Below, one piece after another: positions 1,187 through 62,889 of a stretch of DNA of 64,000 nt. The position numbers were made by a program, and so were the translations under genes. Source of the stretch: Candidatus Woesearchaeota archaeon (GTDB lineage Archaea; Nanobdellota; Nanobdellia; UBA10117; JABICX01). The stretch is from positions 7,993 through 71,992 of the forward strand of contig JABHLG010000013.1 of assembly GCA_018692915.1 (NCBI GenBank), in the 5' to 3' direction. Numbering within the stretch: position 1 is the stretch's first letter; every line of letters starts with the position of its first letter. The notes beneath the pieces were generated by a model. The model was not told where the DNA came from. It saw nothing but the letters and a program-made list of their open reading frames with translations, and made no database searches.

Positions 1187-1579
1187 TTATTTTACACTTG
1201 CGTGTTTTGTTCCCTTAGTTGCACCAACTCCTGGTGCTTTGTGTGAAACTTCTTTTCGTGTTAACACAAATTCTCCTAAATATCTACCTAACATTTCAAC
1301 ATTTATTTCAACTGGATTGAATTTTTGTCCAGAGTAAATATGGAATGTGTGACCTACCATTTCAGGTAATACTATCATATCTCTACAATGTGTTTTTATT
1401 GGTTTGCTTCTACCTTTTTCTGCAGATTTAACTTGTTCAAGAAGTTTCTTTTGTTGGTCATTTAAACCTCTTTTTAGCACTCTACGTGCACGAGCTTTTA
1501 GATGATTAGCTAACTGAGAGTATCCCATATCTTTTAATTCTTCTAATTTTTTTCCACGATATAATATTTCTTTTATCAT
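1187..1579 (-). CDS. rps19: 30S ribosomal protein uS19
   Basis: THCRDMIVLPEMVGHTFHIYSGQKF...GEFVLTRK uS19 signature. Start moved to ATG 1579 (MIKEILYRGKK), which matches archaeal N-termini. The track ORF extends to 1612. Confidence 0.85.
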   Translation of the reverse strand: MIKEILYRGKKLEELKDMGYSQLANHLKARARRVLKRGLNDQQKKLLEQVKSAEKGRSKPIKTHCRDMIVLPEMVGHTFHIYSGQKFNPVEINVEMLGRYLGEFVLTRKEVSHKAPGVGATKGTKHASVK

Positions 1580-1688
1580 AGCCTTTTTCCAAAAAGGTTG
1601 GCGAAAAAACATTGCTTCTCGTAGTGCTAACGCACTCTAAGCAATTGCTTCGCAAATCTTATTGGTTTCCTCCTTGTTTTTTCATCTT

Positions 1689-3696: not shown

Positions 3697-4700
3697 TATC
3701 CTTGTTGGCTCCTTAAACTAATTAATTGTAATTCTGGTGCTTGTGGTATTTGTTTTGCTTTTGTTCGAATTGTAGGTGTTATTCTAATAAGTCTCTTTTT
3801 TGGTCCTGGAATTGAACCTGCAAATAAAAGATAATCTGATTTAACAAGTCCATAATTTACAATTCCACCGTTTGGATTAATTTCTTGGTCCTTTGGATTT
3901 GAAATAAGTAAAACTTGTTTATTATATTCAGTTCTTGTGTGGAAACCCATTTGACCTGGGTGTGGAACTGTGTGTGTTTTTGCGCCTGTAAAAGGTCCTA
4001 GTGTTCCGATTCTTCGGACACCTTTTTCAGATTTATGGAACTTCTTTCGAACGCCAAATCGCTTAATTACACCCTGGTAACCTTTACCAGTTGTAACTGC
4101 ATGAACATCATAATAAACTCCAGATGTAAGAATTTCTGAAACTTTAATTTCTTTTCCTAATAGTGCTTTAGCATAATCAAATTTTGCTTTAACATCTTCT
4201 CCACCAATAGCAATTTCAAATAATTCAGGTCTTTTCTTACCAAAACCTGCTTGCCGTGGTTGAGTTTGAACTAAAATTTTAATATCTACTGCTTGTTCTA
4301 ATTTTTCTTCTGCTTCTTTAATTTTTTGTTGTTCTGTTTTTTTCTTAGGTAAAGTTATTTTTCGTTTAAGGTCCATATCAAAATTGTCAGAGAAAACATC
4401 GAGAAAAGCAGAAAGAGAAGAAAGAGATTTTTTGTAAAGTCGAAGGCCAATTGCCTTCACAGGTGGGCATTCAATAATTGTCGCAGGCACACAAAGTTCT
4501 TCTCCCTTTGTTGGAGAAGTTGGATGGGTATCAACATAAAAAACTTGGGTCATGCCGGCCTTATATCCTGAAAAACCCGCTAACTTGACTTCATTAAACT
4601 TTGGTTGAGAACGAACTCTAGCGTAGATTCGGCTAGCTTTCTTTCTATGCCAAAACTGTAAACTTCCTCTTCTTGGTCGTTTTCGCTTAATGTGTCCCAT
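3696..4700 (-). CDS. rpl3: 50S ribosomal protein uL3
   Basis: 334-aa ORF starting MGHIKRKRPRRGSLQFWHRKKA, containing ..FTGAKTHTVPHPGQMGFHTRTE. It is the first gene of the operon. Confidence 0.9.
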   Translation of the reverse strand: MGHIKRKRPRRGSLQFWHRKKASRIYARVRSQPKFNEVKLAGFSGYKAGMTQVFYVDTHPTSPTKGEELCVPATIIECPPVKAIGLRLYKKSLSSLSAFLDVFSDNFDMDLKRKITLPKKKTEQQKIKEAEEKLEQAVDIKILVQTQPRQAGFGKKRPELFEIAIGGEDVKAKFDYAKALLGKEIKVSEILTSGVYYDVHAVTTGKGYQGVIKRFGVRKKFHKSEKGVRRIGTLGPFTGAKTHTVPHPGQMGFHTRTEYNKQVLLISNPKDQEINPNGGIVNYGLVKSDYLLFAGSIPGPKKRLIRITPTIRTKAKQIPQAPELQLISLRSQQG

Positions 4701-4853
4701 ATTTCACCTTTATCTTCAACTTAAGTTGATGCCTTTTTAAGGCTTGTGTTCATTAATTTTCGTCAAAAGAGTCTACACTCTTAGCGACAGAATTCTAAGA
4801 TTGCAAGGGGTAATTAAAACTAAAATGAATTATTTAAAAAGGTTCCTCTAATA

Positions 4854-5240
4854 TCAGAATTCTGCTAGCGCATTAGCACGTTCTCTACGTTTGTATTCAA
4901 CAGGATGGAAGTCCTGATCCCAAGGATTAAAAAATCCACCTCTACCAATTACATTAGATGGAATTGTATATGTCCCTGGTCGTGAGGTTGAAGATTTTGA
5001 AGTGTCTTTTTGAGAGTGCTCTTTTATTTTTTTGTTTAATGATTCAGAAGTGTTATTTGTAATAGGTTTATTTAGAAAACGTCTTGAAGCGTCATTCATA
5101 GGTTTTTCACGATTTACGTCACAAAAAGCGCGCATTTCCTCTGCAGAACAAACTTCATCTATCTCAGCAGGGTGCTCTTTCCAAATTCGTGGTTTATATT
5201 CTGGATTAAATCCATTACCCATTTCATCTAAAAGTGACAA
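4854..5240 (-). CDS. hypothetical protein
   Basis: 128-aa ORF. The track start is TTG. An ATG (MGNGF) lies at 5222. No family recognised. Confidence 0.35.
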   Translation of the reverse strand: MSLLDEMGNGFNPEYKPRIWKEHPAEIDEVCSAEEMRAFCDVNREKPMNDASRRFLNKPITNNTSESLNKKIKEHSQKDTSKSSTSRPGTYTIPSNVIGRGGFFNPWDQDFHPVEYKRRERANALAEF

Positions 5241-5262
5241 TTTTCACTTAAAAGTGTTTCGG

Positions 5263-5573
5263 TTAGCCTTTGACTACGACTAGCGGTTTTAGTTTAGCAA
5301 CCTTTTTCGCAAGTCCGGTTTTATGAAGAACACCAATCAGCTTTTGACGTGCAAAAGCTGGCAAAACACTTTCCTGCGCATTGCTTGGAAAATTAACCTT
5401 TTACAACCACTATTGGCTTCAACTGAGCTTTTTCTTACAGAAAAAGTTCGCAAAAAGAACGTTGTTTTTCCAAAACAACTGCTTCGCAAATGCAATTTAT
5501 CCTTTTACAACTACAAGAGGTTTCAATTTAGCAACCTTTTTCGCAAGTCCGGTTTTATGAAGAACATCAATAA
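5263..5573. repeat. Nested terminus-duplication locus at the rtcB 3' end
   Basis: On the plus strand the order is displaced copy 3 (5263-5339, encodes VLHKTGLAKKVAKLKPLVVVKG*) and a B-type hairpin element (5340-5392). Then come displaced copy 2 (5393-5422, LKPIVVVKG*), an A-type element (5423-5496) and the functional rtcB end (5497-5573). Confidence 0.85.
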
Positions 5574-6969
5574 CAATATCAACATCTTTGTATGCGCCAG
5601 GTGCTTCTTCTGCTAATCCTCTCCAATCATGTCCTTTTACTAAAATTCCTTGTTTTTCAAGTGAATCTTTAACAGATTGTCCTTTCCATTGTCGGTTTGC
5701 TTGATGGCGGCTCATTACTCTACCTGCGCCATGTGCTGCTGAGCCAAATGCTTTTTCCATGCTTGTTTTTGTTCCATGAAGAATATATGAACTAGTTCCC
5801 ATTGTTCCGCCAATCAAAACTGGCTGACCAATCTTTCGATACTTTTTTGGAACTTCTTTTAAGCCAGGGCCAAATGCTCGAGTTGCACCTTTTCTGTGTA
5901 CAATAAGCTCTTTTTCCTTGCCATTAACCATATGATTTTCTAGCTTACTATTATTGTGACCAATATCATAAAGTAAAGGTATATCTTTTTCTTTAAGTCC
6001 AAAAACCTTTGAAAATGCTTGTCTTCCAAGGTGACCAATTACTTGTCTGTTTGCAAAAGCTGCGTTAATTCCACAATTGACTGCTGAAAAATATTGTTGA
6101 CCTTCTTTACTTTTGAATGGTGCGCAAACAAGCTCTTTATCTGGCAATTTTATCTTGTATTTTCTAGCTGCTTCAGCTAAAAATGTAGTATAATCTGTTC
6201 CAATTTGATGGCCTAGAGCTCTAGAACCACAATGTAATGAAAATACAACTTGATCTTTTTCTAAGCCAAATGCTTTTGCTGCTTCTTTATCATATATTTT
6301 TTCAACATACTGAACTTCAAAATAATGATTTCCTGATCCCAGAGTTCCAACTTGTTTAAATTGTCTTTTCTTTGCTAGATCTGAGACAAACTTTGGATTT
6401 GCTCCTTTTATTCTTCCATTATTTTCAATATATTCTAAATCTTCTTTTAATCCATAGCCGCGCTCAACTGCAAATTCTGCTCCTTTAATAAGCACTTCGT
6501 CAATTTCTTCTTGATTTAGATGGATCTTTCCTTTGCTTCCCAAGCCTGCAGGAACAATCTGATATAATGCATCTAGAATTTCCTTTTGTTTCTTTACAAC
6601 ATCTTTCTTCTTAAGCGGAGTTGTATGCGTTCTAACTCCACAATTAATATCATAACCCACTCCTGCAAGTGCAATTACACCTGTTTTTGCGTCAAACGCC
6701 GCTACACCTCCAATACATACGCCGTAGCCAGGGTGCACATCACTCATTGCGTAACTCGATTCTTGAATTCCCGGTAAACTTGCGACATTTCTAATCTGTG
6801 GAAGTGCGGACCAAATTTTACCATCTTTAACATCCTTAACTAAATGTTGAATTATTTCTTTTGTACCAAAAATAAGTCCTGGCACATTCATTGCGCCTTT
6901 CTTCTTTAATGTCCATTCTAGTGGTGTTTCTTCCATTAATTCAAAATCGTCTATCTTGATTTTTCTCAT
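5497..6969 (-). CDS. rtcB: RNA-splicing ligase RtcB
   Basis: 490-aa contiguous RtcB (..SDVHPGYGVCIGGV.., GSGNHYFEVQ, ..HGAGR..). The ATG at 6969 is preferred over the GTG at 6978. Confidence 0.9.
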   Translation of the reverse strand: MRKIKIDDFELMEETPLEWTLKKKGAMNVPGLIFGTKEIIQHLVKDVKDGKIWSALPQIRNVASLPGIQESSYAMSDVHPGYGVCIGGVAAFDAKTGVIALAGVGYDINCGVRTHTTPLKKKDVVKKQKEILDALYQIVPAGLGSKGKIHLNQEEIDEVLIKGAEFAVERGYGLKEDLEYIENNGRIKGANPKFVSDLAKKRQFKQVGTLGSGNHYFEVQYVEKIYDKEAAKAFGLEKDQVVFSLHCGSRALGHQIGTDYTTFLAEAARKYKIKLPDKELVCAPFKSKEGQQYFSAVNCGINAAFANRQVIGHLGRQAFSKVFGLKEKDIPLLYDIGHNNSKLENHMVNGKEKELIVHRKGATRAFGPGLKEVPKKYRKIGQPVLIGGTMGTSSYILHGTKTSMEKAFGSAAHGAGRVMSRHQANRQWKGQSVKDSLEKQGILVKGHDWRGLAEEAPGAYKDVDIVIDVLHKTGLAKKVAKLKPLVVVKG

Positions 6970-6979
6970 GTTATTCACC

Positions 6980-7861
6980 CTATTTTTTGCTTTTAACCTT
7001 TTTGATTTGTTCTTCGGAGATTAAATCATTTGATAGCCACTTATCAAGGTTTTCTCGTCCATAGCTTGATAATTCATAATATATTCTTCCTTGTCCATTT
7101 ACTGCTTTTCTTATTTTGCTCTCGATTCCGAAGGTCTCTAACTCTTGCTTAACTCGGTCTAGATTTTCTTTTAGAATAGACATTAATCTAACGGTATATG
7201 GTTTCCGAGTTCGTGCTTTTTCTTTAATAATTTTATTACTGCCTTTTGAGAAATCCCAATTGTAATTAACATATGTCTCAATTGATTCTCTTAATCGTTT
7301 TTTCTTAAATGGATGAAGAAATCCGATTTCTTCTTCAAACTTAATTAGCTGATCTTTTCCATAAATACAAAGTGTAGCTGTGTCGCGATTACTTCTAGGT
7401 CTAATTGATGTACTAATATCAAAATGTTCTTTAAGCAAATTTGCTACTTGTTGCAATCCTTTATGATTTACACTGTCTGTACCGATTGCACGATTCTTTG
7501 CTTTTCTCACCCAAACCCAGCCTTCGCAATCAAAGAATGCTCTCAGCCAACGCGCAGCTTGCTCCTTATTCATATATTTCATAACATTCCAGTCTCTTGA
7601 ATGAAATGATCCATAATTATTTACAATATTAAAGTAAATATATTTAGAACCAACTGAACATCGATCCATATCTTTATTCATGTATGGAGTTATACCAAAC
7701 ACTTTCTCGAATTTCTCTTGAAAATCTAACAATAATTTCTTATTTGTATTTCTCAGACCAATATAGTAATACTTCTGTTTCTGTGTTTCATGATTACGAA
7801 TTACATATCCATCTGCACATAAATACGCATGCACTGCTGCAAAATCAGAACTATTCTCCAT
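6980..7861 (-). CDS. free-standing double-motif LAGLIDADG endonuclease-like protein
   Basis: Two LAGLIDADG-type motifs (AVHAYLCADGYV and RWLRAFFDCEGWV) followed by a C-terminal extension of about 100 aa. The stop lies 10 nt before the rtcB ATG. Confidence 0.7.
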   Translation of the reverse strand: MENSSDFAAVHAYLCADGYVIRNHETQKQKYYYIGLRNTNKKLLLDFQEKFEKVFGITPYMNKDMDRCSVGSKYIYFNIVNNYGSFHSRDWNVMKYMNKEQAARWLRAFFDCEGWVWVRKAKNRAIGTDSVNHKGLQQVANLLKEHFDISTSIRPRSNRDTATLCIYGKDQLIKFEEEIGFLHPFKKKRLRESIETYVNYNWDFSKGSNKIIKEKARTRKPYTVRLMSILKENLDRVKQELETFGIESKIRKAVNGQGRIYYELSSYGRENLDKWLSNDLISEEQIKKVKSKK

Positions 7862-16470: not shown

Positions 16471-17247
16471 ATGAAATATATATTCAAACTATCTGGAGAG
16501 AATTATAATCTAGCAAAGTTTGAATTAGAAACTTTACTTAACAAAAAGCTGAAACGAAACAAAGATTCTGTTTCAATTGATTTGCCATTATCTACTGAGC
16601 AAATTAATAAAATTTGCAATCGCTCTGCAATGATTCAGAAATGCTACACTAATAACTTAAAAATTTGGGCAGCTAAATCAGACAAACGATTTGTTGCGAG
16701 GGTGCCGAAAAAGAAACCTAAACAACATCCTGCAATGCTCAAACCAAAGATGGCGCGTTTACTTGTAAATCTCACTAACGCTAAAAAACAGATTCTAGAT
16801 CCCTTTTGTGGAACTGGTTCAATTTTAATTGAAGCGGGAATTCTTGGTCTAAAACCTATTGGCTCAGATATTGATAGTAAAATGATCGAATACTCAAAGA
16901 TCAATACCAAACAATTCAAAGTTAAATCGGAACTAAAACAACTTGATGCAACTCAACTAGAAACTAATTTTAAAAATATTGAAGCAATTGCATGCGACCC
17001 ACCATACGGTATAAGTTCTACTCTTGCTGGAAAGAAAATGCAAGATTTATATCCAGACTTTCTAACAAGTGCAAATAAAATTCTAAAAAAAGGTTCTCGC
17101 TTAGTAATGGTTCGACCACATTATCTAAAACTTGGAGTCAACAAAGACTGGAAAAAACTAGGAGAATTTGACTGGTATATGCACAAAGGACTTACTAGAA
17201 AAATATTAGTACTTGAAAAAAGAAGTGCTACGAGCAATGCGAAGTAG
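16471..17247 (+). CDS. SAM-dependent RNA methyltransferase (Trm11/UPF0020-like, N2-guanine type)
   Basis: DPFCGTGSILIEAG (motif I) and ACDPPYG (motif IV). The last 7 codons (SATSNAK) read into an inserted element. Confidence 0.6.
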   Translation: MKYIFKLSGENYNLAKFELETLLNKKLKRNKDSVSIDLPLSTEQINKICNRSAMIQKCYTNNLKIWAAKSDKRFVARVPKKKPKQHPAMLKPKMARLLVNLTNAKKQILDPFCGTGSILIEAGILGLKPIGSDIDSKMIEYSKINTKQFKVKSELKQLDATQLETNFKNIEAIACDPPYGISSTLAGKKMQDLYPDFLTSANKILKKGSRLVMVRPHYLKLGVNKDWKKLGEFDWYMHKGLTRKILVLEKRSATSNAK

Positions 17248-17335
17248 TGTGCTTTTGCCAGCTTTTTCACTAAAAAGCTGTGTGTATATGCACAAAGGAC
17301 TCACTCGGAAGATTTTAGTATTAGAAAAGAGGTAA
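17175..17335. repeat. Terminus-duplication locus at the methyltransferase 3' end (B-type element)
   Basis: Copy 1 is 17175-17223 (YMHKGLTRKILVLEKR). The element is 17224-17283 and contains hairpin agctttttcactaaaaagct. Copy 2 is 17284-17335 (YMHKGLTRKILVLEKR*). Confidence 0.85.
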
Positions 17336-18610: not shown

Positions 18611-19579
18611 ATGAGTAAAATAACAAAAGATCTCAAAAAGAAACTGGAGAAAATGCATTATGAAATTATTGGTAATCATACTGCACTAGAAATATGTTCA
18701 TGGGCTAAAAAAAGTTTGCGAGATGAAGGAGTTTGCTATAAAGAGAAATTTTATGGTATAAAATCGCATCGCTGTGCTCAGATGAGTCCTGCTGCAGGTT
18801 TCTGTGACCAAAAATGTATCTTTTGCTGGCGACCACAAGAACACAATATTGGAACTAAAATGAATGCAAAAGTTGACTCTCCTACTGAAATAATTGATGG
18901 TTGTATTAAAGCGCAGCGAAGAAAGCTTTCTGGCTTTGGTGGTAATGAAAAAACCAATCCTGAAAAGTTCAAAGAAGCACAGGACCCAAATCAATGGGCT
19001 ATTTCTCTTACAGGTGAACCAACATTATATCCAAAAATTGGAGAATTAATATCTGAACTAACTAAAAGAAAAAACTCAACATTTCTCGTAACAAATGGTC
19101 AACATCCCGAAGTTCTTGAAAAACTAGCAAAAGAAAAGAATTTACCAACACAGTTATACATATCTCTTGATGCAACAACTGCTGAAGAATTTAAGAAAAT
19201 CAATGTGCCTCTAAACAAAAACGGTTGGCAAAGACTAAATAAAACGCTTAAATTACTTCCAAAATTAGACTGTAAAAAAGTAATTAGAATTACTGTAATC
19301 AAAGAATATAATGATAACTCAATTTCAGGCTTCGCAAAGCTGTTAAAAATCGCACAGCCTGACTTTGTTGAAGTTAAAAGCTATATGCATGTAGGATACT
19401 CACGAAATCGTCTTCCAAAAGAAGCTATGCCGCGCCACTCTGAAATCAGAGAATTTTCTGAAAAACTAGTAAAAGAACTAAATAATGTTTTTCGCGAACC
19501 TTTTTCTGAAAAAGGCTCATGGAAGATTAAAAATGAACAAATCAGAAGCAGAGTTGTCCTTATCTCCCGCAACGAATAA
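18611..19579 (+). CDS. taw1: tRNA 4-demethylwyosine synthase (Taw1/TYW1, radical SAM)
   Basis: CDQKCIFCWRP cluster, ISLTGEPTLYP, 322 aa. Confidence 0.8.
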   Translation: MSKITKDLKKKLEKMHYEIIGNHTALEICSWAKKSLRDEGVCYKEKFYGIKSHRCAQMSPAAGFCDQKCIFCWRPQEHNIGTKMNAKVDSPTEIIDGCIKAQRRKLSGFGGNEKTNPEKFKEAQDPNQWAISLTGEPTLYPKIGELISELTKRKNSTFLVTNGQHPEVLEKLAKEKNLPTQLYISLDATTAEEFKKINVPLNKNGWQRLNKTLKLLPKLDCKKVIRITVIKEYNDNSISGFAKLLKIAQPDFVEVKSYMHVGYSRNRLPKEAMPRHSEIREFSEKLVKELNNVFREPFSEKGSWKIKNEQIRSRVVLISRNE

Positions 19580-19617: not shown

Positions 19618-19750
19618 GCGCTCGTGGTCTAATGGCTCATGATTCTAGCCTTCCAAGGAATCCCTTCTTAGAAAGAAGGTCTTCCAACCCCAAGAACTAT
19701 TCTTGTGGAGAGGAGAGCTGGAGGTAGGGGTTCGATTCCCCTCGGGCGCA
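19618..19750 (+). tRNA. tRNA-Gly(UCC) with 60-nt intron at 37/38 (19656-19715)
   Basis: Hand fold. Acceptor gcgctcg/cgggcgc, anticodon stem ctagc/gctgg, loop ctTCCaa, T arm agggg-ttcgatt-cccct. The intron carries the D-type core aatcccttcttagaaagaaggtcttccaaccccaagaac. Confidence 0.8.
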
Positions 19751-19997: not shown

Positions 19998-20052
19998 TAA
20001 GGATGTTAAAATATATAACATTTAAACAGTTCACTAAAACAAAGGTTTTGGC

Positions 20053-20652
20053 ATGAAATTAGGAATTTTATTTAGTGGTGGAAAAGATAGCGCTGCTGCT
20101 TTATTTTGGGCACAGCAACAGCACGAGCCAGTTTGTTTAATTACAATTGATTCTGAAAATAAAGATAGTTATATGTTTCATACAGACAAAGTTCAAGAAA
20201 TTCCGAATATTGCAAAACGAATTGGTTTGCCTTTAATCTTCAAAAAGACAAAAGGGGAAAAAGAAACTGAACTCAATGATTTAAAATCAGCTATATTAGA
20301 AGCAAAAAATAAATTTAAAATTGAAGGGGTTGTTTCTGGCGCACTTGCATCTGAATATCAACGACAGCGAGTTGATGTAATATGCCAAGATTTAGGATTA
20401 GCTTCATTTGCTCCACTTTGGCACAAAGACCCTGAACAATATGTTAGAGAATTAATTGATTTGGGATTTAAAATTAAAATAGTTAGAGTTGCTGCAGAAG
20501 GTCTTGATGAAAGCTGGGTTGGCAAATATATTGATAATAAATTTTTTAACAAACTTCTCGAGCTAAATCAAAAATATAGTGTCCACATTGCAGGCGAGGG
20601 TGGCGAATATGAGTCATTTGTAGAAGATGGTCCTATTTTCTCTAGTAAATAA
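20053..20652 (+). CDS. diphthine-ammonia ligase-like ATP pyrophosphatase (Dph6/MJ0570 family)
   Basis: MKLGILFSGGKDS PP-loop and GEGGEYESFV. Confidence 0.65.
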   Translation: MKLGILFSGGKDSAAALFWAQQQHEPVCLITIDSENKDSYMFHTDKVQEIPNIAKRIGLPLIFKKTKGEKETELNDLKSAILEAKNKFKIEGVVSGALASEYQRQRVDVICQDLGLASFAPLWHKDPEQYVRELIDLGFKIKIVRVAAEGLDESWVGKYIDNKFFNKLLELNQKYSVHIAGEGGEYESFVEDGPIFSSK

Positions 20653-30211: not shown

Positions 30212-30466
30212 TTAAGAATATATTTTCTTAATCCAATACTTTTTGAAAAAAGGTAAAGTCAATGTTGATAAAACAAAAGCCACTGCAGGTATTATAGCAT
30301 TTAACCAAGGATCTGGAATATCTGCTGACCACAAAAAGACAGCTATTACAATATAAGTTAGCACTCCAATCAGAACTTTTCGAGTTATACTAATTTCCCA
30401 CGCTTTATCTGATTCTACTTTCTTGTTTCGTTCCTTTATTTTTTTTATCTCTAATTCTATTTTCAT
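30212..30466 (-). CDS. small two-TM membrane protein
   Basis: 84-aa ORF with hydrophobic segments. Confidence 0.35.
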   Translation of the reverse strand: MKIELEIKKIKERNKKVESDKAWEISITRKVLIGVLTYIVIAVFLWSADIPDPWLNAIIPAVAFVLSTLTLPFFKKYWIKKIYS

Positions 30467-30515
30467 GCTAAAACCTCATTTTTAGCAAGCTGTTTAAATG
30501 TTTCACATTTTAACA

Positions 30516-30869
30516 TCATAACATTTGTAATTTACTTGTAACTTTATCTATATCTTTATCTTCTGCTGGACCAATTGCGCAAGCTGTTACAGTTCCAGGT
30601 TTAAGTTCAGTCATTCCTGCATCTGCAATAACTGCTGTTGTTAATCCAGCATCATCTGCTTCTTGTTTATATTTATAAAGGTCTTTCTGATTATCAACTT
30701 TCAAAACAACTTTTTTCATTCCACTAAGTCGCCATGCTGAGAACGTAATTCTATTTTTCTTTTTAGACTTAAGAGAAGCTTCAACAGCTGCGTGACTCGA
30801 TTGCGCTGCTAGTTTTCCTCGGCTCATCTTCAAATCTGTCCGAATTAATATTACTTGTTTGTAAGCCAT
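30516..30869 (-). CDS. pth: peptidyl-tRNA hydrolase, archaeal Pth2 type
   Basis: KQVILIRTDLKMSRGKLAAQSSHAAV. Confidence 0.85.
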   Translation of the reverse strand: MAYKQVILIRTDLKMSRGKLAAQSSHAAVEASLKSKKKNRITFSAWRLSGMKKVVLKVDNQKDLYKYKQEADDAGLTTAVIADAGMTELKPGTVTACAIGPAEDKDIDKVTSKLQML

Positions 30870-30900: not shown

Positions 30901-31039
30901 TTACTCGTGACGTAAAGCATCAACCAGCTTTTTAGAAAAACCGAGCGACTACGTCGCGTGGCCACGCTAAAGTGTAACTTTAGCTTGGAGTTGGCAAAAA
31001 ACGATTGTTGACGTTTTACTCATGACGAAGTGCGTCAAC
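30901..31039. repeat. Terminus-duplication locus at the ABC permease 3' end (B-like, extended and structured)
   Basis: Displaced copy 30901-30924 (VDALRHE*), 91-nt insert 30925-31015 with several hairpins and the ggcaaaaaacg motif, functional end 31016-31039 (VDALRHE*). Confidence 0.8.
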
Positions 31040-33144: not shown

Positions 33145-33836
33145 TTCTCTCTCCTTTTTTTCTCAATTGCACCATCTTTTAACCAAAAGACATTATCTAC
33201 ACCTTTAAGTTTTGCGAATCGAGGATCGTGAGTTACGATAATTAATGTTTTTTTATGTTTTTCATGTAAGTCTAATAGCAAATCCATAATTTGCTCGCCC
33301 ATTTTAGAATCAAGATTTCCTGTTGGTTCGTCAGCAAGAATAATTTCAGGGTCATTAGCAAGTGATCTTGCAATTGCTACTCTCTGGCGCTCTCCACCAG
33401 ATAATTCACCGGGGCGATGAGTCATACGTTCTCCAAGGCCGACAAGCCGTAGTATTTTTTTTGCTTTTTCAACTTTATCTAAAACAAATGATCTCTTAAA
33501 TATCATCGGTAATGTAACATTCTCAATAGCTGTTAATGTTGGAATTAAATTAAATGTTTGAAAAACAAAACCAATTTTCTCTCCACGAACTTGTGCAAGT
33601 GTGCTCTCATCCATATGTGCAATATTCCTTCCATCTAATTTAACAATGCCTTTTGTTGGTAAATCTAACGCACCAACCATATTCATTGCAGTTGATTTAC
33701 CTGAACCAGATGGCCCCATAATAACTGCAAAATCTCCCTTATTTATTGTAATATCTAAACCTCGCAGTGCCGGAACTTCAACACTACCCATCTGATAAAT
33801 CTTCCAAACGTCTTGAACATCAATTATAGCTTTCAT
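33141..33836 (-). CDS. ABC transporter ATP-binding protein (MacB/LolD-like)
   Basis: Walker A GPSGSGKST, LSGGERQR, ILADEPTGNLD. Confidence 0.9.
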   Translation of the reverse strand: MKAIIDVQDVWKIYQMGSVEVPALRGLDITINKGDFAVIMGPSGSGKSTAMNMVGALDLPTKGIVKLDGRNIAHMDESTLAQVRGEKIGFVFQTFNLIPTLTAIENVTLPMIFKRSFVLDKVEKAKKILRLVGLGERMTHRPGELSGGERQRVAIARSLANDPEIILADEPTGNLDSKMGEQIMDLLLDLHEKHKKTLIIVTHDPRFAKLKGVDNVFWLKDGAIEKKRREK

Positions 33837-33924
33837 TTATACCTCCGAAGTTTGTGAGACTCGCTAAAATTTTGTTTAGCTCTGTCTTCCAAACGCCTTG
33901 CACATCTATTATTGCCTTACTCAT
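33801..33924. repeat. Terminus-duplication locus at the ABC ATPase 5' end (E-type element)
   Basis: Functional start copy 33801-33836 (MKAIIDVQDVWK), element 33837-33885, displaced start copy 33886-33924 (MSKAIIDVQGVWK). Confidence 0.8.
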
Positions 33925-35864: not shown

Positions 35865-36036
35865 GAGCCAGTAGCTTAGTCTGGATAACCGTTAGGTTCT
35901 TGCTGAACCTTGGTTCAGGAATAGAGCACTTCCCTCCTAAGAGCTTTTTCTTTTCTAAAGAAAAAGTTCGCAAAAAGAAACTAATTTTTGTAAAAGAGGT
36001 AGGAAGGGGTCGCAGGTTCGAATCCTGTCTGGCTCG
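35865..36036 (+). tRNA. tRNA-Arg(CCU) with two introns (D-loop 35888-35923; 37/38 position 35941-36001)
   Basis: Hand fold. Acceptor gagccag/ctggctc, D stem gctt/gagc, anticodon stem cttcc/ggaag, loop ctCCTaa, T arm gcagg-ttcgaat-cctgt. The canonical intron carries the A-type core gagctttttcttttctaaagaaaaagttcgcaaaaagaaac. Confidence 0.75.
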
Positions 36037-39683: not shown

Positions 39684-39811
39684 GCCTCTATAGCTCAGCT
39701 GGTAGAGCGTTACCCTCGTAAGAATCCCTTTCTTGTAAGAAAGGTCTTCCAACCCCAAAGAACGGATTCGGAAAAAGGTAAAGGTCGCAGGTTCAATTCC
39801 TGCTAGGGGCT
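39684..39811 (+). tRNA. tRNA-Thr(CGU) with 55-nt intron at 37/38 (39721-39775)
   Basis: Hand fold. Acceptor gcctcta/taggggc, D arm gctc-agctggta-gagc, anticodon stem ttacc/ggtaa, loop ctCGTaa, T arm gcagg-ttcaatt-cctgc. The intron carries the D-type core. Confidence 0.85.
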
Positions 39812-39920
39812 CTAACCTAAATAAGAAATATCTTTTATATCTCAGCTTTCTTCCAAGAAAGCTGGCAAAGAAACCTGCTAACTCAGTTGCTTCGCATTAG
39901 CCAAGGTAGCTAATGTCTTT
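39812..39920. repeat. Terminus-duplication locus at the PAC2-like gene 3' end (B-type element)
   Basis: Displaced copy 39812-39835 (KDISYLG*). Element 39836-39896 (cagctttcttccaagaaagctggcaaagaaac...gcttcgca). Functional end 39897-39920 (KDISYLG*). Confidence 0.85.
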
Positions 39921-47097: not shown

Positions 47098-47148
47098 ATA
47101 TTTGTATACTAAAAGAAATATTTAAGAGTTTTCAGTATTGCTGTAAAA

Positions 47149-47283
47149 ATGGATAAAATTCATATATACACGCAAGGATGCACAGGAGCTTTTTCCGCTT
47201 CGCGCAAAAAGTTCGCAAAAAATACATATTATAGAGGTTACTCAAAATGATAAAAATCTATATACATACACAAGGTTGTACAG
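47149..47283. repeat. Terminus-duplication locus at the MiaB-like gene 5' end (A-type element)
   Basis: Displaced start copy 47149-47185 (MDKIHIYTQGCT). Element 47186-47246 (gagctttttccgcttcgcgcaaaaagttcgcaaaaaatac...). Functional start 47247-47283 (MIKIYIHTQGCT). Confidence 0.8.
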
Positions 47284-48341
47284 CTAATCAATCAGATTCT
47301 GAAGTTATAGCTGGGCTGCTCAAAGAAGCAGGTTATAAACTAACTGATTTGAAAAATGCAGATTTAGTAATATTTAATACATGTAGTTTGAAAAGTCCCA
47401 CTGAGCAAAGTTTATTTAGGAAAATTCAAGACAATGCTAAAACTAAAAAAATAATTATTGCTGGCTGCTTTCCACTTTCATTTCCAGAAGATAAACGATT
47501 GAAAAACTATTCCTTACTAGGTAGCTTTGATTTGAAAAAAGTTGTTGATGTTGTTAGTAAAACACTAAATGGCAAGCGCGTTGTTCTGCTTAGTCGAAAA
47601 GCAGAAGATAAATCCTGTCTTCCAAAAATCAGAGATAATCAAAAAATTGCAAAAGTTGTAATATCAAAAGGCTGTCTTTCAAACTGTGCGTTTTGCGCGG
47701 GAAAAAAAGCTCGGGGAAAATTAGAAAGCTACAGTATTACAAATATTATATCTGAAGTTCAAGCTGCTGTTGCAGATGGATGCAATCGAATTTATTTAAC
47801 TTGTCAAGACACTGGCTGCTATGGCTTTGATCAAAACACAAATCTTATTGAGTTAGTTAAGAAAGTACTTGCAGTTAAAGGTAATTTTAAAGTTCGGATT
47901 GGAATGATGAGTCCACAGTGGGCTCTTAAATTATTACCTGAATTAATTGAAATTTATAAGCATGAAAAAGTTGTGAAATTCTTGCACATTCCTGTTCAGT
48001 CTGGCTCAGATAAAATTCTAAAGCTAATGAATCGGCAATACACTATAGCTGAATTCAAGAAGGTTGTTGAAACTTTCCGCAAACAGGTTCCAATAGACAG
48101 CATTTCAACAGATATAATTGTTGGCTTTCCTGGAGAGACTGAAGCAGATTTTAAGAAAACCGTTGAGCTGTTACAGTGGTTGAAGCCAGAAGTTCTGAAC
48201 ACAACAAAATACTGGCCTCGAAAAGGCACAGTTGCCGGTGATAATTACTTTAATTCAATTGATAATCCAAACAGCCATCAAGCAAAAGAGATTTCTAAAA
48301 TCAAACAAGAGCGAGCACTAATTCTACATCAATTAAAATAA
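47247..48341 (+). CDS. MiaB-like radical-SAM methylthiotransferase (archaeal e-MtaB/CDKAL1 type)
   Basis: N-terminal UPF0004 domain (HTQGCTANQSDSE) and radical SAM cluster CLSNCAFCAG. Confidence 0.75.
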   Translation: MIKIYIHTQGCTANQSDSEVIAGLLKEAGYKLTDLKNADLVIFNTCSLKSPTEQSLFRKIQDNAKTKKIIIAGCFPLSFPEDKRLKNYSLLGSFDLKKVVDVVSKTLNGKRVVLLSRKAEDKSCLPKIRDNQKIAKVVISKGCLSNCAFCAGKKARGKLESYSITNIISEVQAAVADGCNRIYLTCQDTGCYGFDQNTNLIELVKKVLAVKGNFKVRIGMMSPQWALKLLPELIEIYKHEKVVKFLHIPVQSGSDKILKLMNRQYTIAEFKKVVETFRKQVPIDSISTDIIVGFPGETEADFKKTVELLQWLKPEVLNTTKYWPRKGTVAGDNYFNSIDNPNSHQAKEISKIKQERALILHQLK

Positions 48342-50742: not shown

Positions 50743-50867
50743 CTATGCGTATTCTCTCCAAGTGTGATTGCCATTTTCTTTCTTGAAAGAAAGAAACTAT
50801 GCTTCCAAAGAAAGAACATATACTCGTGCTTCGCACGCAATTATGCGTATTCTCTCCAAGTGTGATT
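50743..50867. repeat. Terminus-duplication locus at the tfs 3' end (D/B-like element)
   Basis: 27-nt repeat (50743-50769 and 50841-50867, NHTWREYA*) with 26/27 identity, TAG vs TAA. It flanks a 71-nt insert gccattttctttcttgaaagaaagaaactatgcttccaaagaaagaac...gtgcttcgcacgcaa. Confidence 0.85.
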
Positions 50868-55304: not shown

Positions 55305-55351
55305 AGAATGTAATATAGTCTTAAGTATATATATTTTTTGTGTTAGTTATT

Positions 55352-55441
55352 ACTGACGAAGTCTGTTCCACTGACGAAGTTAGTGATACTGACGAAGTCT
55401 GTTCCACTGACGAAGTTAGTGATACTGACGAAGTTAGTTGT
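55352..55441. repeat. Tandem repeat, five 18-bp units (actgacgaagtctgttcc / actgacgaagttagtgat alternating)
   Basis: Read directly. Units start at 55352, 55370, 55388, 55406 and 55424. The last unit overlaps the stop of the 1167-aa ORF. Confidence 0.9.
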
Positions 55442-61614: not shown

Positions 61615-61910
61615 AAATCCCTAACTTTCTTCCTCAGAACTCAAGATATGTTCGTCAGAAAATTAACATAATATATTAATAAATAATATTATATTTCTTA
61701 ATTAAAATTAAAGTCCTCTTCCTGTTGCACAAACTTCAGGTGAAGTTTGATCACACCTTTGCTCCTCAGAATCCAAATTATATTCGTCGCAAAATAATGC
61801 CATTGGTTAACCAATTACTAAATTGAAAATCTCTAAATTTTCATTAAAAATCAATATAACATATTAATATACACATTTAACTCTATTCAAAATTAAAGTC
61901 CTCTTCCTGT
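61615..61910. repeat. Terminus-duplication locus at the 3' end of gene 61893-62534, with two tandem C-type units
   Basis: 22-bp perfect repeat aaaattaaagtcctcttcctgt at 61704-61725 and 61889-61910. C-type cores are ...cttcctcagaactcaagatatgttcgtcagaaaat (61629-61663) and ...tgctcctcagaatccaaattatattcgtcgcaaaat (61760-61794). Confidence 0.75.
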
Positions 61911-62534
61911 AGCTGTAATTGTTGCACTTAGAGCTCCTGTTTGATTTGCATCTGTTGGGATAATTAATTGTATTTCAACATTAATTGAATTATTAGCTTG
62001 ATTTGCATCAAGAACAGAACAAATAATATTTGCTGAAGTGTTAATATCTGTAAAACTTGTGTCAACTATATCTGCACAGGAATCTGATTCATTTTGTTCG
62101 ATTTTCCATCTAAAAGCAGGGTCTGAACCACCAACAAAATCTTCAGCAGTTTTATTTGCTGTAAGATTTAACTCAATTAAATCTCCACCAATATTTTCAA
62201 GAACTAAAGATTGACTTGTAGCTGTCCAATTTCCCCCAGTTACTGATTTCGCATCTGTATCTAATGTAGCATTTTCAAAACCACCTGTAACTGAGCCAGT
62301 TCCCCAATCTATTGCTGCTGACGTCCAATTAATTGCTGTAACAGATTCTATTGTTACTGTAGCGGTTGCATTTGAATCTGATGTAACAAAACCTGTAAAT
62401 CCCATACTATCTCCTAAAAAGAAATCAACCATAGACAAACTAATAGCTACAACTAACAAAAGAGCTAATAGCTCATTTGATATATTAAATCCTTTTCTTT
62501 TGCTAGACTGTCTCTTCCTGCTCACCATTTTCAA
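61893..62534 (-). CDS. secreted protein with pilin-like (class III-like) N-terminus
   Basis: KRKGFNISNELLALLLVVAISL N-terminus followed by FTGFVTSDS. Thr/Asn-rich with many sequons. Confidence 0.4.
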   Translation of the reverse strand: MKMVSRKRQSSKRKGFNISNELLALLLVVAISLSMVDFFLGDSMGFTGFVTSDSNATATVTIESVTAINWTSAAIDWGTGSVTGGFENATLDTDAKSVTGGNWTATSQSLVLENIGGDLIELNLTANKTAEDFVGGSDPAFRWKIEQNESDSCADIVDTSFTDINTSANIICSVLDANQANNSINVEIQLIIPTDANQTGALSATITATGRGL

Positions 62535-62727: not shown

Positions 62728-62780
62728 TAATTATAATATATCTTATTCTATATAAACTTTATGTGAATTTTAATAGAATT

Positions 62781-62889
62781 AATTAAAATTACTAACATCC
62801 TGTTCCTGTGTAATCCCTTCTTTTAAAAAGAAGGTTTTACAATCCCAAGAAATAAATTATAATTAAAATTACTAACATCCTGTTCCTGT
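62781..62889. repeat. Terminus-duplication locus at the 3' end of gene 62872-63735 (D-type, tRNA-intron-like element)
   Basis: Perfect 29-bp direct repeat aattaaaattactaacatcctgttcctgt (62781-62809 and 62861-62889). It flanks the 51-nt element gtaatcccttcttttaaaaagaaggttttacaatcccaagaaataaattat. Confidence 0.9.

Follow-up and report, generated by a model that had tools for sequence, protein, structure and literature searches.

Why should a gene carry its last codons three times over, with two different sequences in between, and which of the three ends is native to it? The question is raised by rtcB on contig JABHLG010000013.1 of a Candidatus Woesearchaeota archaeon, within a stretch of 64,000 nucleotides (nt; 32% G+C) that we call the window and in whose positions all coordinates are given; the rtcB region is read on the minus strand. 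The coding sequence (5497-6969; PF01139) is complete, encoding 490 amino acids from an ATG start to its own in-frame TAA, and its product ends in ..IDVLHKTGLAKKVAKLKPLVVVKG. The translated end, copy 1 (5497-5571), comprises a 45-nt core and a 30-nt tail, t1, that includes the stop codon. Downstream of this stop come element A (74 nt, 5423-5496), then copy 2, an untranslated tail, t2, that spells LKPIVVVKG and a stop (5393-5422), then element B (55 nt, 5338-5392) and finally copy 3 (5263-5337), a displaced, untranslated end made up of a second core, core', and a tail, t3, and reading IGVLHKTGLAKKVAKLKPLVVVKG before its stop. The repeat formed by copies 1 and 2 may start 6 nt earlier (GCT AAA TTG versus GCT CAG TTG). 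The arrangement is what a family of small hairpins, DPANN-wide in distribution, has left at this locus; its members sit at gene boundaries, where they duplicate or replace gene ends, spread between lineages and also occur in tRNA introns.

The layout agrees to the base with a preliminary description of this DNA, which had reported the rtcB tail in triplicate, with two different elements between the copies. It is not an assembly artefact, because a 501-nt stretch covering it (5150-5650) is 100% identical across six contigs (L001-L006) from six separate ENA and JGI assemblies, and the tandem arrangement therefore holds. The identical RtcB protein was found on 17 contigs.

Copies 1 and 3 differ at 9 of 75 nt, and these differences are unevenly placed. 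The two cores are identical at 44 of 45 positions, the exception being a GAT/GGT change in codon 2 (D/G); the other eight differences all lie in the last ten codons, and every one is synonymous, with exactly the codon pairs listed in the preliminary description. When eight random substitutions were made in a 30-nt tail, the peptide was unaltered in 1 of 100,000 trials, and synonymous changes between the copies affect 0 of 15 core codons versus 7 of 9 tail codons (Fisher P=1e-4). The change-over between identical and diverged positions comes no more than 3-6 nt from where copy 2 begins, in support of the preliminary description. The geometry is also nested as first described, since A and copy 2 break into the left copy of the 75-nt repeat around B, and that outer repeat is a true duplication. 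Simple nesting with a clock fails, because the inner repeat (t1 versus t2, 6 of 30 nt) is about 20% diverged and the outer one (core versus core', 1 of 45 nt) about 2%.

The rtcB loci of relatives indicated which end is native. The site is empty in five related lineages (L129, L130, L131/L127, L132/L008 and L128), where the next gene begins 14-70 nt after the rtcB stop. Over the last 200 RtcB residues the window shares 98% amino acid identity with L129 (85% nucleotide identity for rtcB and 94% for the neighbouring L3 gene); for L130 the amino acid identity is 96%. Set against the L129 tail, the displaced t3 has 2 differences in 30 nt and leads into a downstream spacer that L129 shares; the translated t1 has 7 of 30 and t2 9 of 30. 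These alignments indicate that copy 3 is the resident rtcB tail and that the translated tail is of different ancestry; the synonymous divergence is not drift of nested copies after duplication. The t2 tail is nearest to that of L130 (5 of 30 nt differ); polarised with L130, t1 carries four synonymous changes and t2 one non-synonymous and two silent changes, a pattern that ordinary decay, in the donor, of a repeat made by A could give. Import of the whole gene is not supported, as rtcB shows 89-93% identity to the sister over its 3' 450 nt, inside a background of 80-97%. The odd C-terminus of one RtcB homologue (P0022) was also examined as a possible insertion, and is instead a 1-nt frameshift in an A-run (L168, 2915-2960), probably a sequencing or assembly error.

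Other relatives have a filled site. In L133 and L134, whose RtcB shares 83% amino acid identity with that of the window, the gene end holds an A-type element as a 72-nt insert, flanked in L134 by a perfect 42-nt repeat that includes the stop, and in L007 the A core lies directly after the rtcB stop, where the contig ends. The window's A is 92-94% identical to the element of L133 and L134, while rtcB is 79% identical between them; L133 and L134 agree at 71 of 72 element positions and share 88% identity in rtcB. The element is thus much better conserved than its host gene, relative to which it appears younger; such conservation indicates either recent horizontal spread or strong constraint on the element. 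Junctions between element and repeat differ among the window, L133/L134 and L007. In L133 the displaced copy spells VRPLVCVKG, a tail of the type that is functional in lineage L131. An A-type element at rtcB ends in three lineages leaves room for a target preference or for homing. Directly upstream of rtcB in the window lies a free-standing LAGLIDADG_3 endonuclease-like open reading frame (ORF) of 293 amino acids (6980-7861, minus strand), which is present in all six population contigs and absent from the rtcB locus of every relative.

What are the two elements? The preliminary description had called them different, and although they are distinct they are not unrelated: alignment and folding show A and B to be two related members of one family of hairpin-forming, non-coding elements, with a 5' GCGAAG, a TTTGC(C/G) and a terminal ...AAAAGCT(C/G) hairpin in common. 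The two-hairpin members are 55-90 nt long, the family as a whole spans about 30-90 nt, and the elements have no ORF. In the shared plan, a variable insert is enclosed by the pairing of a 5' GCGAAG-type segment with a CTTTTGC segment, and a terminal hairpin, (C/G)AGCTTTTT..AAAAAGCT(G/C), directly follows the CTTTTGC stem segment. The displaced gene-end copy begins right after this hairpin (..AAAAGCT(G/C)), so that the 3' end of the element is sharp (..AAAGCTG and then the displaced copy directly), and the 5' end is variable. Element A folds into an outer GCGAAG/CTTTTTGCG stem around a small hairpin, followed by the terminal hairpin CTTTTTCT..AGAAAAAG, and B into two adjacent hairpins, TTTTGCC and then CAGCTTTTG..CAAAAGCTG. 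No Rfam family matched A or B.

A blastn search of the window with the rtcB spacer region matched B to 17233-17280 (84% identity across 49 nt, E=3e-7), in a related copy spanning 17223-17283, and the A core to 35951-35979. A scan for TYGCS followed by a hairpin gave 13 sites in the window compared to 2.5 in shuffled sequences, and about nine element copies are present in the 64 kb. The second A core, AGAAAAAGTTCGCAAAAAGAA, sits in the anticodon-loop intron (35940-36000, plus strand) of a tRNA-Arg(CCU) gene (35865-36036); it is on the plus strand, as at the rtcB locus, hence antisense to rtcB; inside the intron it lies inverted. An element-like two-hairpin sequence (GCGAAGC ... TTTTTCGCC AACCTTTT..AAAAGGCT) also occupies a spacer of the ribosomal-protein operon (1575-1665, minus strand), with no clear flanking repeat.

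At least six further genes in the window carry an element together with a duplicated end, four at the 3' end and two at the 5' end. In a tRNA methyltransferase gene (UPF0020; 17175-17335, plus strand), repeat 1 (17175-17222) is separated by a B-type element (17223-17283) from repeat 2 and its stop (17284-17335); the 48-nt repeat has nine nucleotide differences, all synonymous, and repeat 1, whose stop has been lost, reads seven codons into the element. An ABC permease gene (30901-31039, minus strand) has repeat 1 at 31016-31039 (VDALRHE and stop), an element at 30925-31015 and repeat 2 at 30901-30924, with five differences over 24 nt, again all synonymous. A PAC2-family gene (39812-39920, minus strand) has repeat 1 at 39897-39920 (KDISYLG and stop), a B-type element at 39836-39896 and repeat 2 at 39812-39835, where it abuts a tRNA gene; 9 of 24 nt differ between its copies, all synonymously and including a serine AGC/TCT pair. 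The repeats of a TFS-like gene (50743-50867, minus strand; repeat 1 50841-50867, element 50770-50840, repeat 2 50743-50769) are identical over 26 nt, the sole difference being the last base of the stop (TAA versus TAG). At the 5' ends, an MtaB/CDKAL1-like gene (47149-47285, plus strand) has an orphan start (MDKIHIYTQGCT; 47149-47186) upstream of an antisense element (47187-47246) and the functional start (MIKIYIHTQGCT; from 47247), with a repeat of about 38 nt, and an ABC ATPase gene (33798-33924, minus strand) has an orphan start (33886-33924), a 49-nt hairpin spacer (33837-33885) and a functional ATG that ends at 33836, with a repeat of about 39 nt.

At rtcB and most of the other 3'-end loci the element sits after an intact ORF and its stop. 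Across the four 3'-end loci with diverged copies, rtcB included, 31 of 31 differences are synonymous (each locus P<=2e-4 under random substitution). Since the same architecture occurs at the ends of other genes, the phenomenon is broader than first described and RtcB function is not special to it. The tie to RtcB as the ligase of tRNA exons and introns, hinted at in the preliminary description, is not needed to explain the locus and is probably coincidental; no specific link to that function is supported.

To establish which copy is native at the other loci, we used two sister contigs, L149 and L150, that were retrieved via two neighbouring proteins. The site is empty in the sister for the PAC2-family and ABC permease genes (L149) and for the TFS-like gene (L150), whose two window copies are identical to each other, and the sister mtaB has neither an element nor an orphan start. 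Compared to the sister's functional end, the in-use copy differs at 9 of 24 nt and the displaced copy at 3 of 24 for PAC2, at 7 of 24 and 5 of 24 for the permease, and at 9 of 39 and 3 of 36 for MtaB. Together with rtcB (7 of 30 and 2 of 30 relative to L129), the in-use copies sum to 32 differences and the displaced copies to 13 (P=0.003). The displaced PAC2 copy has GAT, TCT, TTA and TAG in common with the sister, and the displaced permease copy runs into a downstream spacer identical to the sister's. Likewise, M(D/x)KIHIYTQGCT opens MtaB in the sister and in nearly all other homologues; in the window this sequence is found at the orphan start, not at the functional one.

Decay in place predicts the opposite polarity, because it is the displaced copies, not those in use, that are nearer to the sister allele. 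At a given locus, then, the two copies are usually orthologues with separate ancestries, which accounts for why the differences are synonymous only, why similarity ends at the stop or start codon and why the boundary between identical and diverged sequence is sharp. Three other explanations of the differences were rejected: neutral drift after duplication, on the synonymous-only differences and the nearness of displaced copies to the sister; selection merely for unlike repeats, because the unused copy, free to change anywhere, is the conserved one; and the repeats of a diversity-generating retroelement, because the differences are synonymous and not adenine-specific.

Two of these sites also show larger changes. 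The mtaB start of the sister overlaps an upstream gene that is absent from the window; this 2-phosphosulfolactate-phosphatase-like gene lies directly upstream of mtaB at 2229-2998 of L150 and is missing at 47098-47246, where nothing but the orphan mtaB start and the element is left, so that the element insertion there coincides with a deletion or rearrangement. Downstream of PAC2, a tRNA gene abuts the displaced tail in the window (39684-39835) where L149 has a 197-amino-acid ORF (4695-5320), making this site another rearrangement breakpoint at an element. The ABC ATPase arrangement is common to the window and L149; its orphan start is identical to the sister's at 39 of 39 nt (about 11585-11625 of L149), its functional start differs at 7 of 39, and an upstream ORF of 34 codons begins at the orphan ATG and overlaps the true one. 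Judging by this overlap, the orphan ATG may now serve in translational coupling.

An exact-pattern scan for the B core, covering one genome per species, found at least 118 loci. Among the matches listed are about 33 contigs of archaeal metagenome-assembled genomes (MAGs), nearly all from DPANN, including one Micrarchaeota MAG (7 contigs), Woesearchaeota (6 contigs), Nanoarchaeota, Aenigmatarchaeota, Undinarchaeales and Iainarchaeum; the non-archaeal matches listed are isolated hits in various bacteria. The upstream hairpin is present in the archaeal copies, as is a T-rich linker. A crude test of the outer stem as an archaeal/bacterial discriminator did not separate the two sets of matches. Direct repeats start directly after ..GCTG in several archaeal copies: L063 has perfect 34-nt repeats around a bare 28-nt hairpin, spanning a gene start; in L047 a perfect 24-nt repeat is the 3' end of a tRNA; in L048 a 35-nt repeat spans the ribosome-binding site, the start and seven codons; L011 has a 16-nt repeat ending at a stop codon; L112 has a 55-nt perfect repeat and L118 an 89-nt repeat. 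Overall, flanking repeats measure 16, 24, 24, 26, 30-36, 34, 42, 48, 55, 75 and 89 nt. The L011 copy was considered as an intron interrupting an ORF, and reading the frame showed another 3'-end duplication. Many copies in other genomes adjoin tRNA genes, and in L046 the canonical intron of one tRNA is a B-type element in antisense. Among the IMG/VR contigs, L154, L162 and L163/L167 also have the TTTTTGCC/TTTTTGCGAAC motif of a hairpin, sometimes in tandem; these contigs, some of them in bins labelled giant-virus MAGs, would be either archaeal contamination or true carriers.

How could such a family produce the rtcB locus? On balance, and with reservations, we consider it probable that elements insert as DNA with long target duplications and that the resulting alleles then spread between lineages together with a few donor codons. 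In a first step, an element would enter the very short spacer at a gene boundary and duplicate a long stretch of the target, anywhere between 16 and about 90 nt. This duplication would take in the last or first codons and the stop or start, because such spacers are shorter than it is. The gene would be left intact, with a second copy of its end beyond the element; at 3' ends this copy would be untranslated, and at 5' ends the far copy would be an orphan start, from which a short reading frame may still run. Perfect repeats at other loci (34 nt in L063, 24 nt in L047, 55 nt in L112, 42 nt in L134 and 26 nt at the TFS-like gene) are true duplications of this kind, and we infer the same step for rtcB. 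In a second step, element-bearing alleles would pass between diverged, co-occurring lineages via recombination centred on the well-conserved element, a few donor codons 5' of the element would travel along, and the resident end would persist as the displaced copy; the polarity of the aligned copies points in this direction, and recombination is the mechanism we would propose for it. At rtcB, B would have come first with the 75-nt duplication (core plus tail), and the translated tail would then have given way to an A unit (t1-A-t2) derived from a different allele lineage, leaving copy 3 as a fossil of the resident tail. No RNA-level function would be required for the gene to work.

A number of observations weigh against this account. 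Among the 20 unassigned ORFs of the window there is no transposase, integrase or HUH nuclease, just the one LAGLIDADG protein, and to our knowledge duplications so long and so variable are unlike those of any characterised transposase. No donor with exactly tail 1 and A (TTGAAACCTCTTGTAGTTGTAAAAGGATAAATTGCATTTGCGAAG) or with the in-use PAC2 tail and its element (AAAGACATTAGCTACCTTGGCTAATGCGAAGC) was recovered, and t1 is only slightly nearer to L130 (6 differences) than to L129 (7). L133 requires at least three sequence sources, a history beyond a single import; together with the failure of the clock, this makes recombination at the rtcB end recurrent. In other DPANN genomes, only 2 of the 33 listed copies lie within 100 nt downstream of a same-strand ORF, so that the gene-end pattern is documented mainly in the present genome and at tRNA genes, and the rule of an element following a same-strand stop codon was not generalised to those genomes. 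Finally, the foreign tract at rtcB and PAC2 is limited, within about 10 nt, to the duplicated segment. Random crossovers in a long gene would not give such a repeat-sized tract, which makes dedicated replacement of gene ends a serious rival.

In that rival, the mobile unit would consist of donor tail, stop and element: a break close to where the orthologous gene ends would be repaired from an element-bearing allele up to the terminal hairpin and joined to resident DNA, placing a recoded end before the native one with no true target duplication, and the recoding could block re-cutting. The match between foreign tract and in-use repeat at rtcB and PAC2 is what it predicts, and the sharp 3' and variable 5' ends of the elements, the A type at the rtcB end of three lineages with differing junctions and the free-standing LAGLIDADG gene beside rtcB in this lineage only all speak for it. 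We nonetheless judge it unlikely, since the perfect repeats around the bare 28-nt hairpin of L063 and at the TFS-like gene, and related elements at unrelated genes, require de novo insertion that duplicates recipient DNA, and since no nuclease is linked to the elements and a single LAGLIDADG enzyme cannot cover many different targets. Site-specific integration of viruses or plasmids at gene 3' ends, with an attP copy rebuilding the end and later deletion leaving attL-attR arms, would give the same layout of gene, element-borne end, insert and native end, which is the classical outcome of integration, and the motif does occur in a few IMG/VR contigs. Remnants of this sort are very improbable here, given the roughly nine copies that 64 kb of a small genome contain, each of 30-90 nt and with the same fold at many unrelated targets, the perfect 34-nt repeat around a bare hairpin in L063, the 5'-end cases and the lack of any integrase in the window.

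The presence of an A-like core in the tRNA-Arg intron, and of a B-type element as a canonical tRNA intron in L046, raises the prospect that the elements act in RNA. They would then be bulge-helix-bulge (BHB) introns or processing sites in mRNAs, from which the splicing endonuclease and RtcB remove the element and one repeat; both tails would be translated as alternative 3' exons under selection on the protein, which would account for the conservation of untranslated copies at the protein level, and rtcB would regulate itself. This is improbable, because the elements in tRNAs are oriented opposite to those in mRNAs, copy 1 already has an in-frame stop that makes splicing unnecessary, the displaced copies follow the sister allele with no co-evolution with the gene, and duplications at 5' ends and at tRNA 3' ends do not fit alternative exons. 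A strict hBHBh' scan gave weak candidates around rtcB, and the same scan missed the three intron-bearing tRNAs of the window, which have relaxed motifs. Short-distance direct repeats are, lastly, the usual product of tandem duplication or replication slippage, which neutral drift could then diversify, or they could be an assembly artefact. Neither is credible for this locus: 31 of 31 differences are synonymous, the unused copy is nearer to the sister allele, the spacers belong to a dispersed structured family and six independent assemblies agree base for base. Of these possibilities, insertion with long duplications followed by spread between lineages remains the one we prefer.

Additional repeats and insertions were observed elsewhere in the window. 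Within a radical-SAM (TYW1-like) gene (19492-19518, plus strand), a hairpin resembling the elements, TTTTTCGC GAACCTTTTT ctg AAAAAGGCTC, is found in frame, either through in-frame insertion or by chance. The tRNA genes at 19618-19750 and 39684-39811 share an intron segment of about 45 nt (19646-19693 and 39711-39758, plus strand; 75% identity) that contains a CCTTTCTT..AAGAAAGG hairpin and is apparently a second mobile intron type. The tRNA-Arg(CCU) gene of the window has a D-loop and an anticodon-loop intron, while the same gene in L149 (8850-9025) is inverted relative to its neighbours, has no D-loop intron and carries an extra T-loop insert; lineages of about 90% identity thus show turnover of their introns. 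The arms of a 61-nt inverted repeat (20002-20062 and 30457-30517), which are 82% complementary, lie 10.4 kb apart. Exact 30-nt repeats at 62780-62809 and 62860-62889 (80 nt apart) and at 61699-61728 and 61884-61913 (185 nt apart), as well as an 18-nt tandem array (55351-55440), are in or near large unannotated ORFs that resemble surface proteins.

Known systems resemble the family in part. Like MITEs (miniature inverted-repeat transposable elements), repetitive extragenic palindromic (REP) sequences and bacterial interspersed mosaic elements (BIMEs), and the palindromes derived from IS200/IS605, these elements are short, non-coding, multi-copy, structured and intergenic, and they rely on functions supplied in trans. 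REP sequences and IS200/IS605 derivatives make no target duplications, and our elements depart from them in having, besides hairpins, long flanking duplications and no fixed target word at the junctions, whereas those elements insert beside a set tetra- or pentanucleotide. Unlike classical MITEs, they are without terminal inverted repeats of 10-15 bp or more (A, B and other copies have non-complementary ends and two internal hairpins), their flanking repeats of 16-89 nt are variable, cover gene ends and are often of different ancestry, and no transposase-encoding parent element of the MITE type is present in the window. A survey published in 2024 placed a Woesearchaea genome among the archaea densest in MITEs, the target duplications of which are 2-10 bp by definition (PMC11602168).

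The likeness to mobile archaeal BHB introns of tRNAs lies in related short sequences at several tRNA positions and genes, in anticodon-loop introns and in content that differs between sisters; tRNA introns are reported to have undergone "transposition" in Thermoproteales (said to be described by Fujishima et al. in 2010). Unlike such introns, the family is also found outside RNA genes, in opposite orientation and with long DNA duplications, and the defining need to be removed from an RNA gene applies in just two tRNAs: that of L046, with its B type, and tRNA-Arg, with its A-like core. We know of no demonstration of DNA-level insertion for BHB introns, nor of a DNA-level footprint seen in decades. 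The long flanking duplications are direct evidence of DNA-level insertion for a family that shares members with introns.

Replacement of gene ends by homing endonucleases has a reported parallel in atp6 of Allomyces mitochondria (reportedly from Paquin et al. in 1994), where an endonuclease insertion replaced the 3' end of the gene and left the native end downstream, and T4-type intronless homing is an example with a free-standing endonuclease. The rtcB, PAC2, MtaB and ABC permease loci similarly combine a foreign, recoded end in use, an insert and a displaced native end, and spread between lineages with co-conversion of flanking codons is a further likeness; different from homing are the insert at rtcB and elsewhere, 55-90 nt without an ORF, the many unrelated genes and the position of the LAGLIDADG ORF, which is separate, 1.5 kb off and upstream of rtcB only. 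SSV-type viruses, genomic islands and SCCmec in rlmH rebuild the 3' end of tRNA or protein genes, and as in such integrative elements the direct repeats include the target 3' end and the in-use copy is supplied by the element. Here the inserts are 28-91 nt, two orders smaller, with no integrase or cargo between the repeats (the filled relatives L133 and L134 hold just the same 72-nt insert), and there are many targets, 5' ends among them. Long gene-end duplications or recoded, displaced ends were not found described in the literature searched. It is possible, though we hold it only tentatively, that the elements represent an undescribed class of enzyme-less mobile DNA in DPANN that inserts at boundaries with duplications of tens of bases, homes with a recoded gene end and serves as the DNA vehicle by which tRNA introns are gained and moved.

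For genome annotation, the family means that gene callers will give spurious small ORFs and wrong gene ends at element sites, as in the methyltransferase that reads seven codons into its element. For population genetics, displaced gene ends are dated fossils of the resident allele and a direct read-out of recombination between diverged DPANN lineages. Because a single family is found in tRNA introns and in intergenic insertions alike, and empty and filled sites exist among co-occurring lineages, the mobility of introns and elements in DPANN becomes directly testable.

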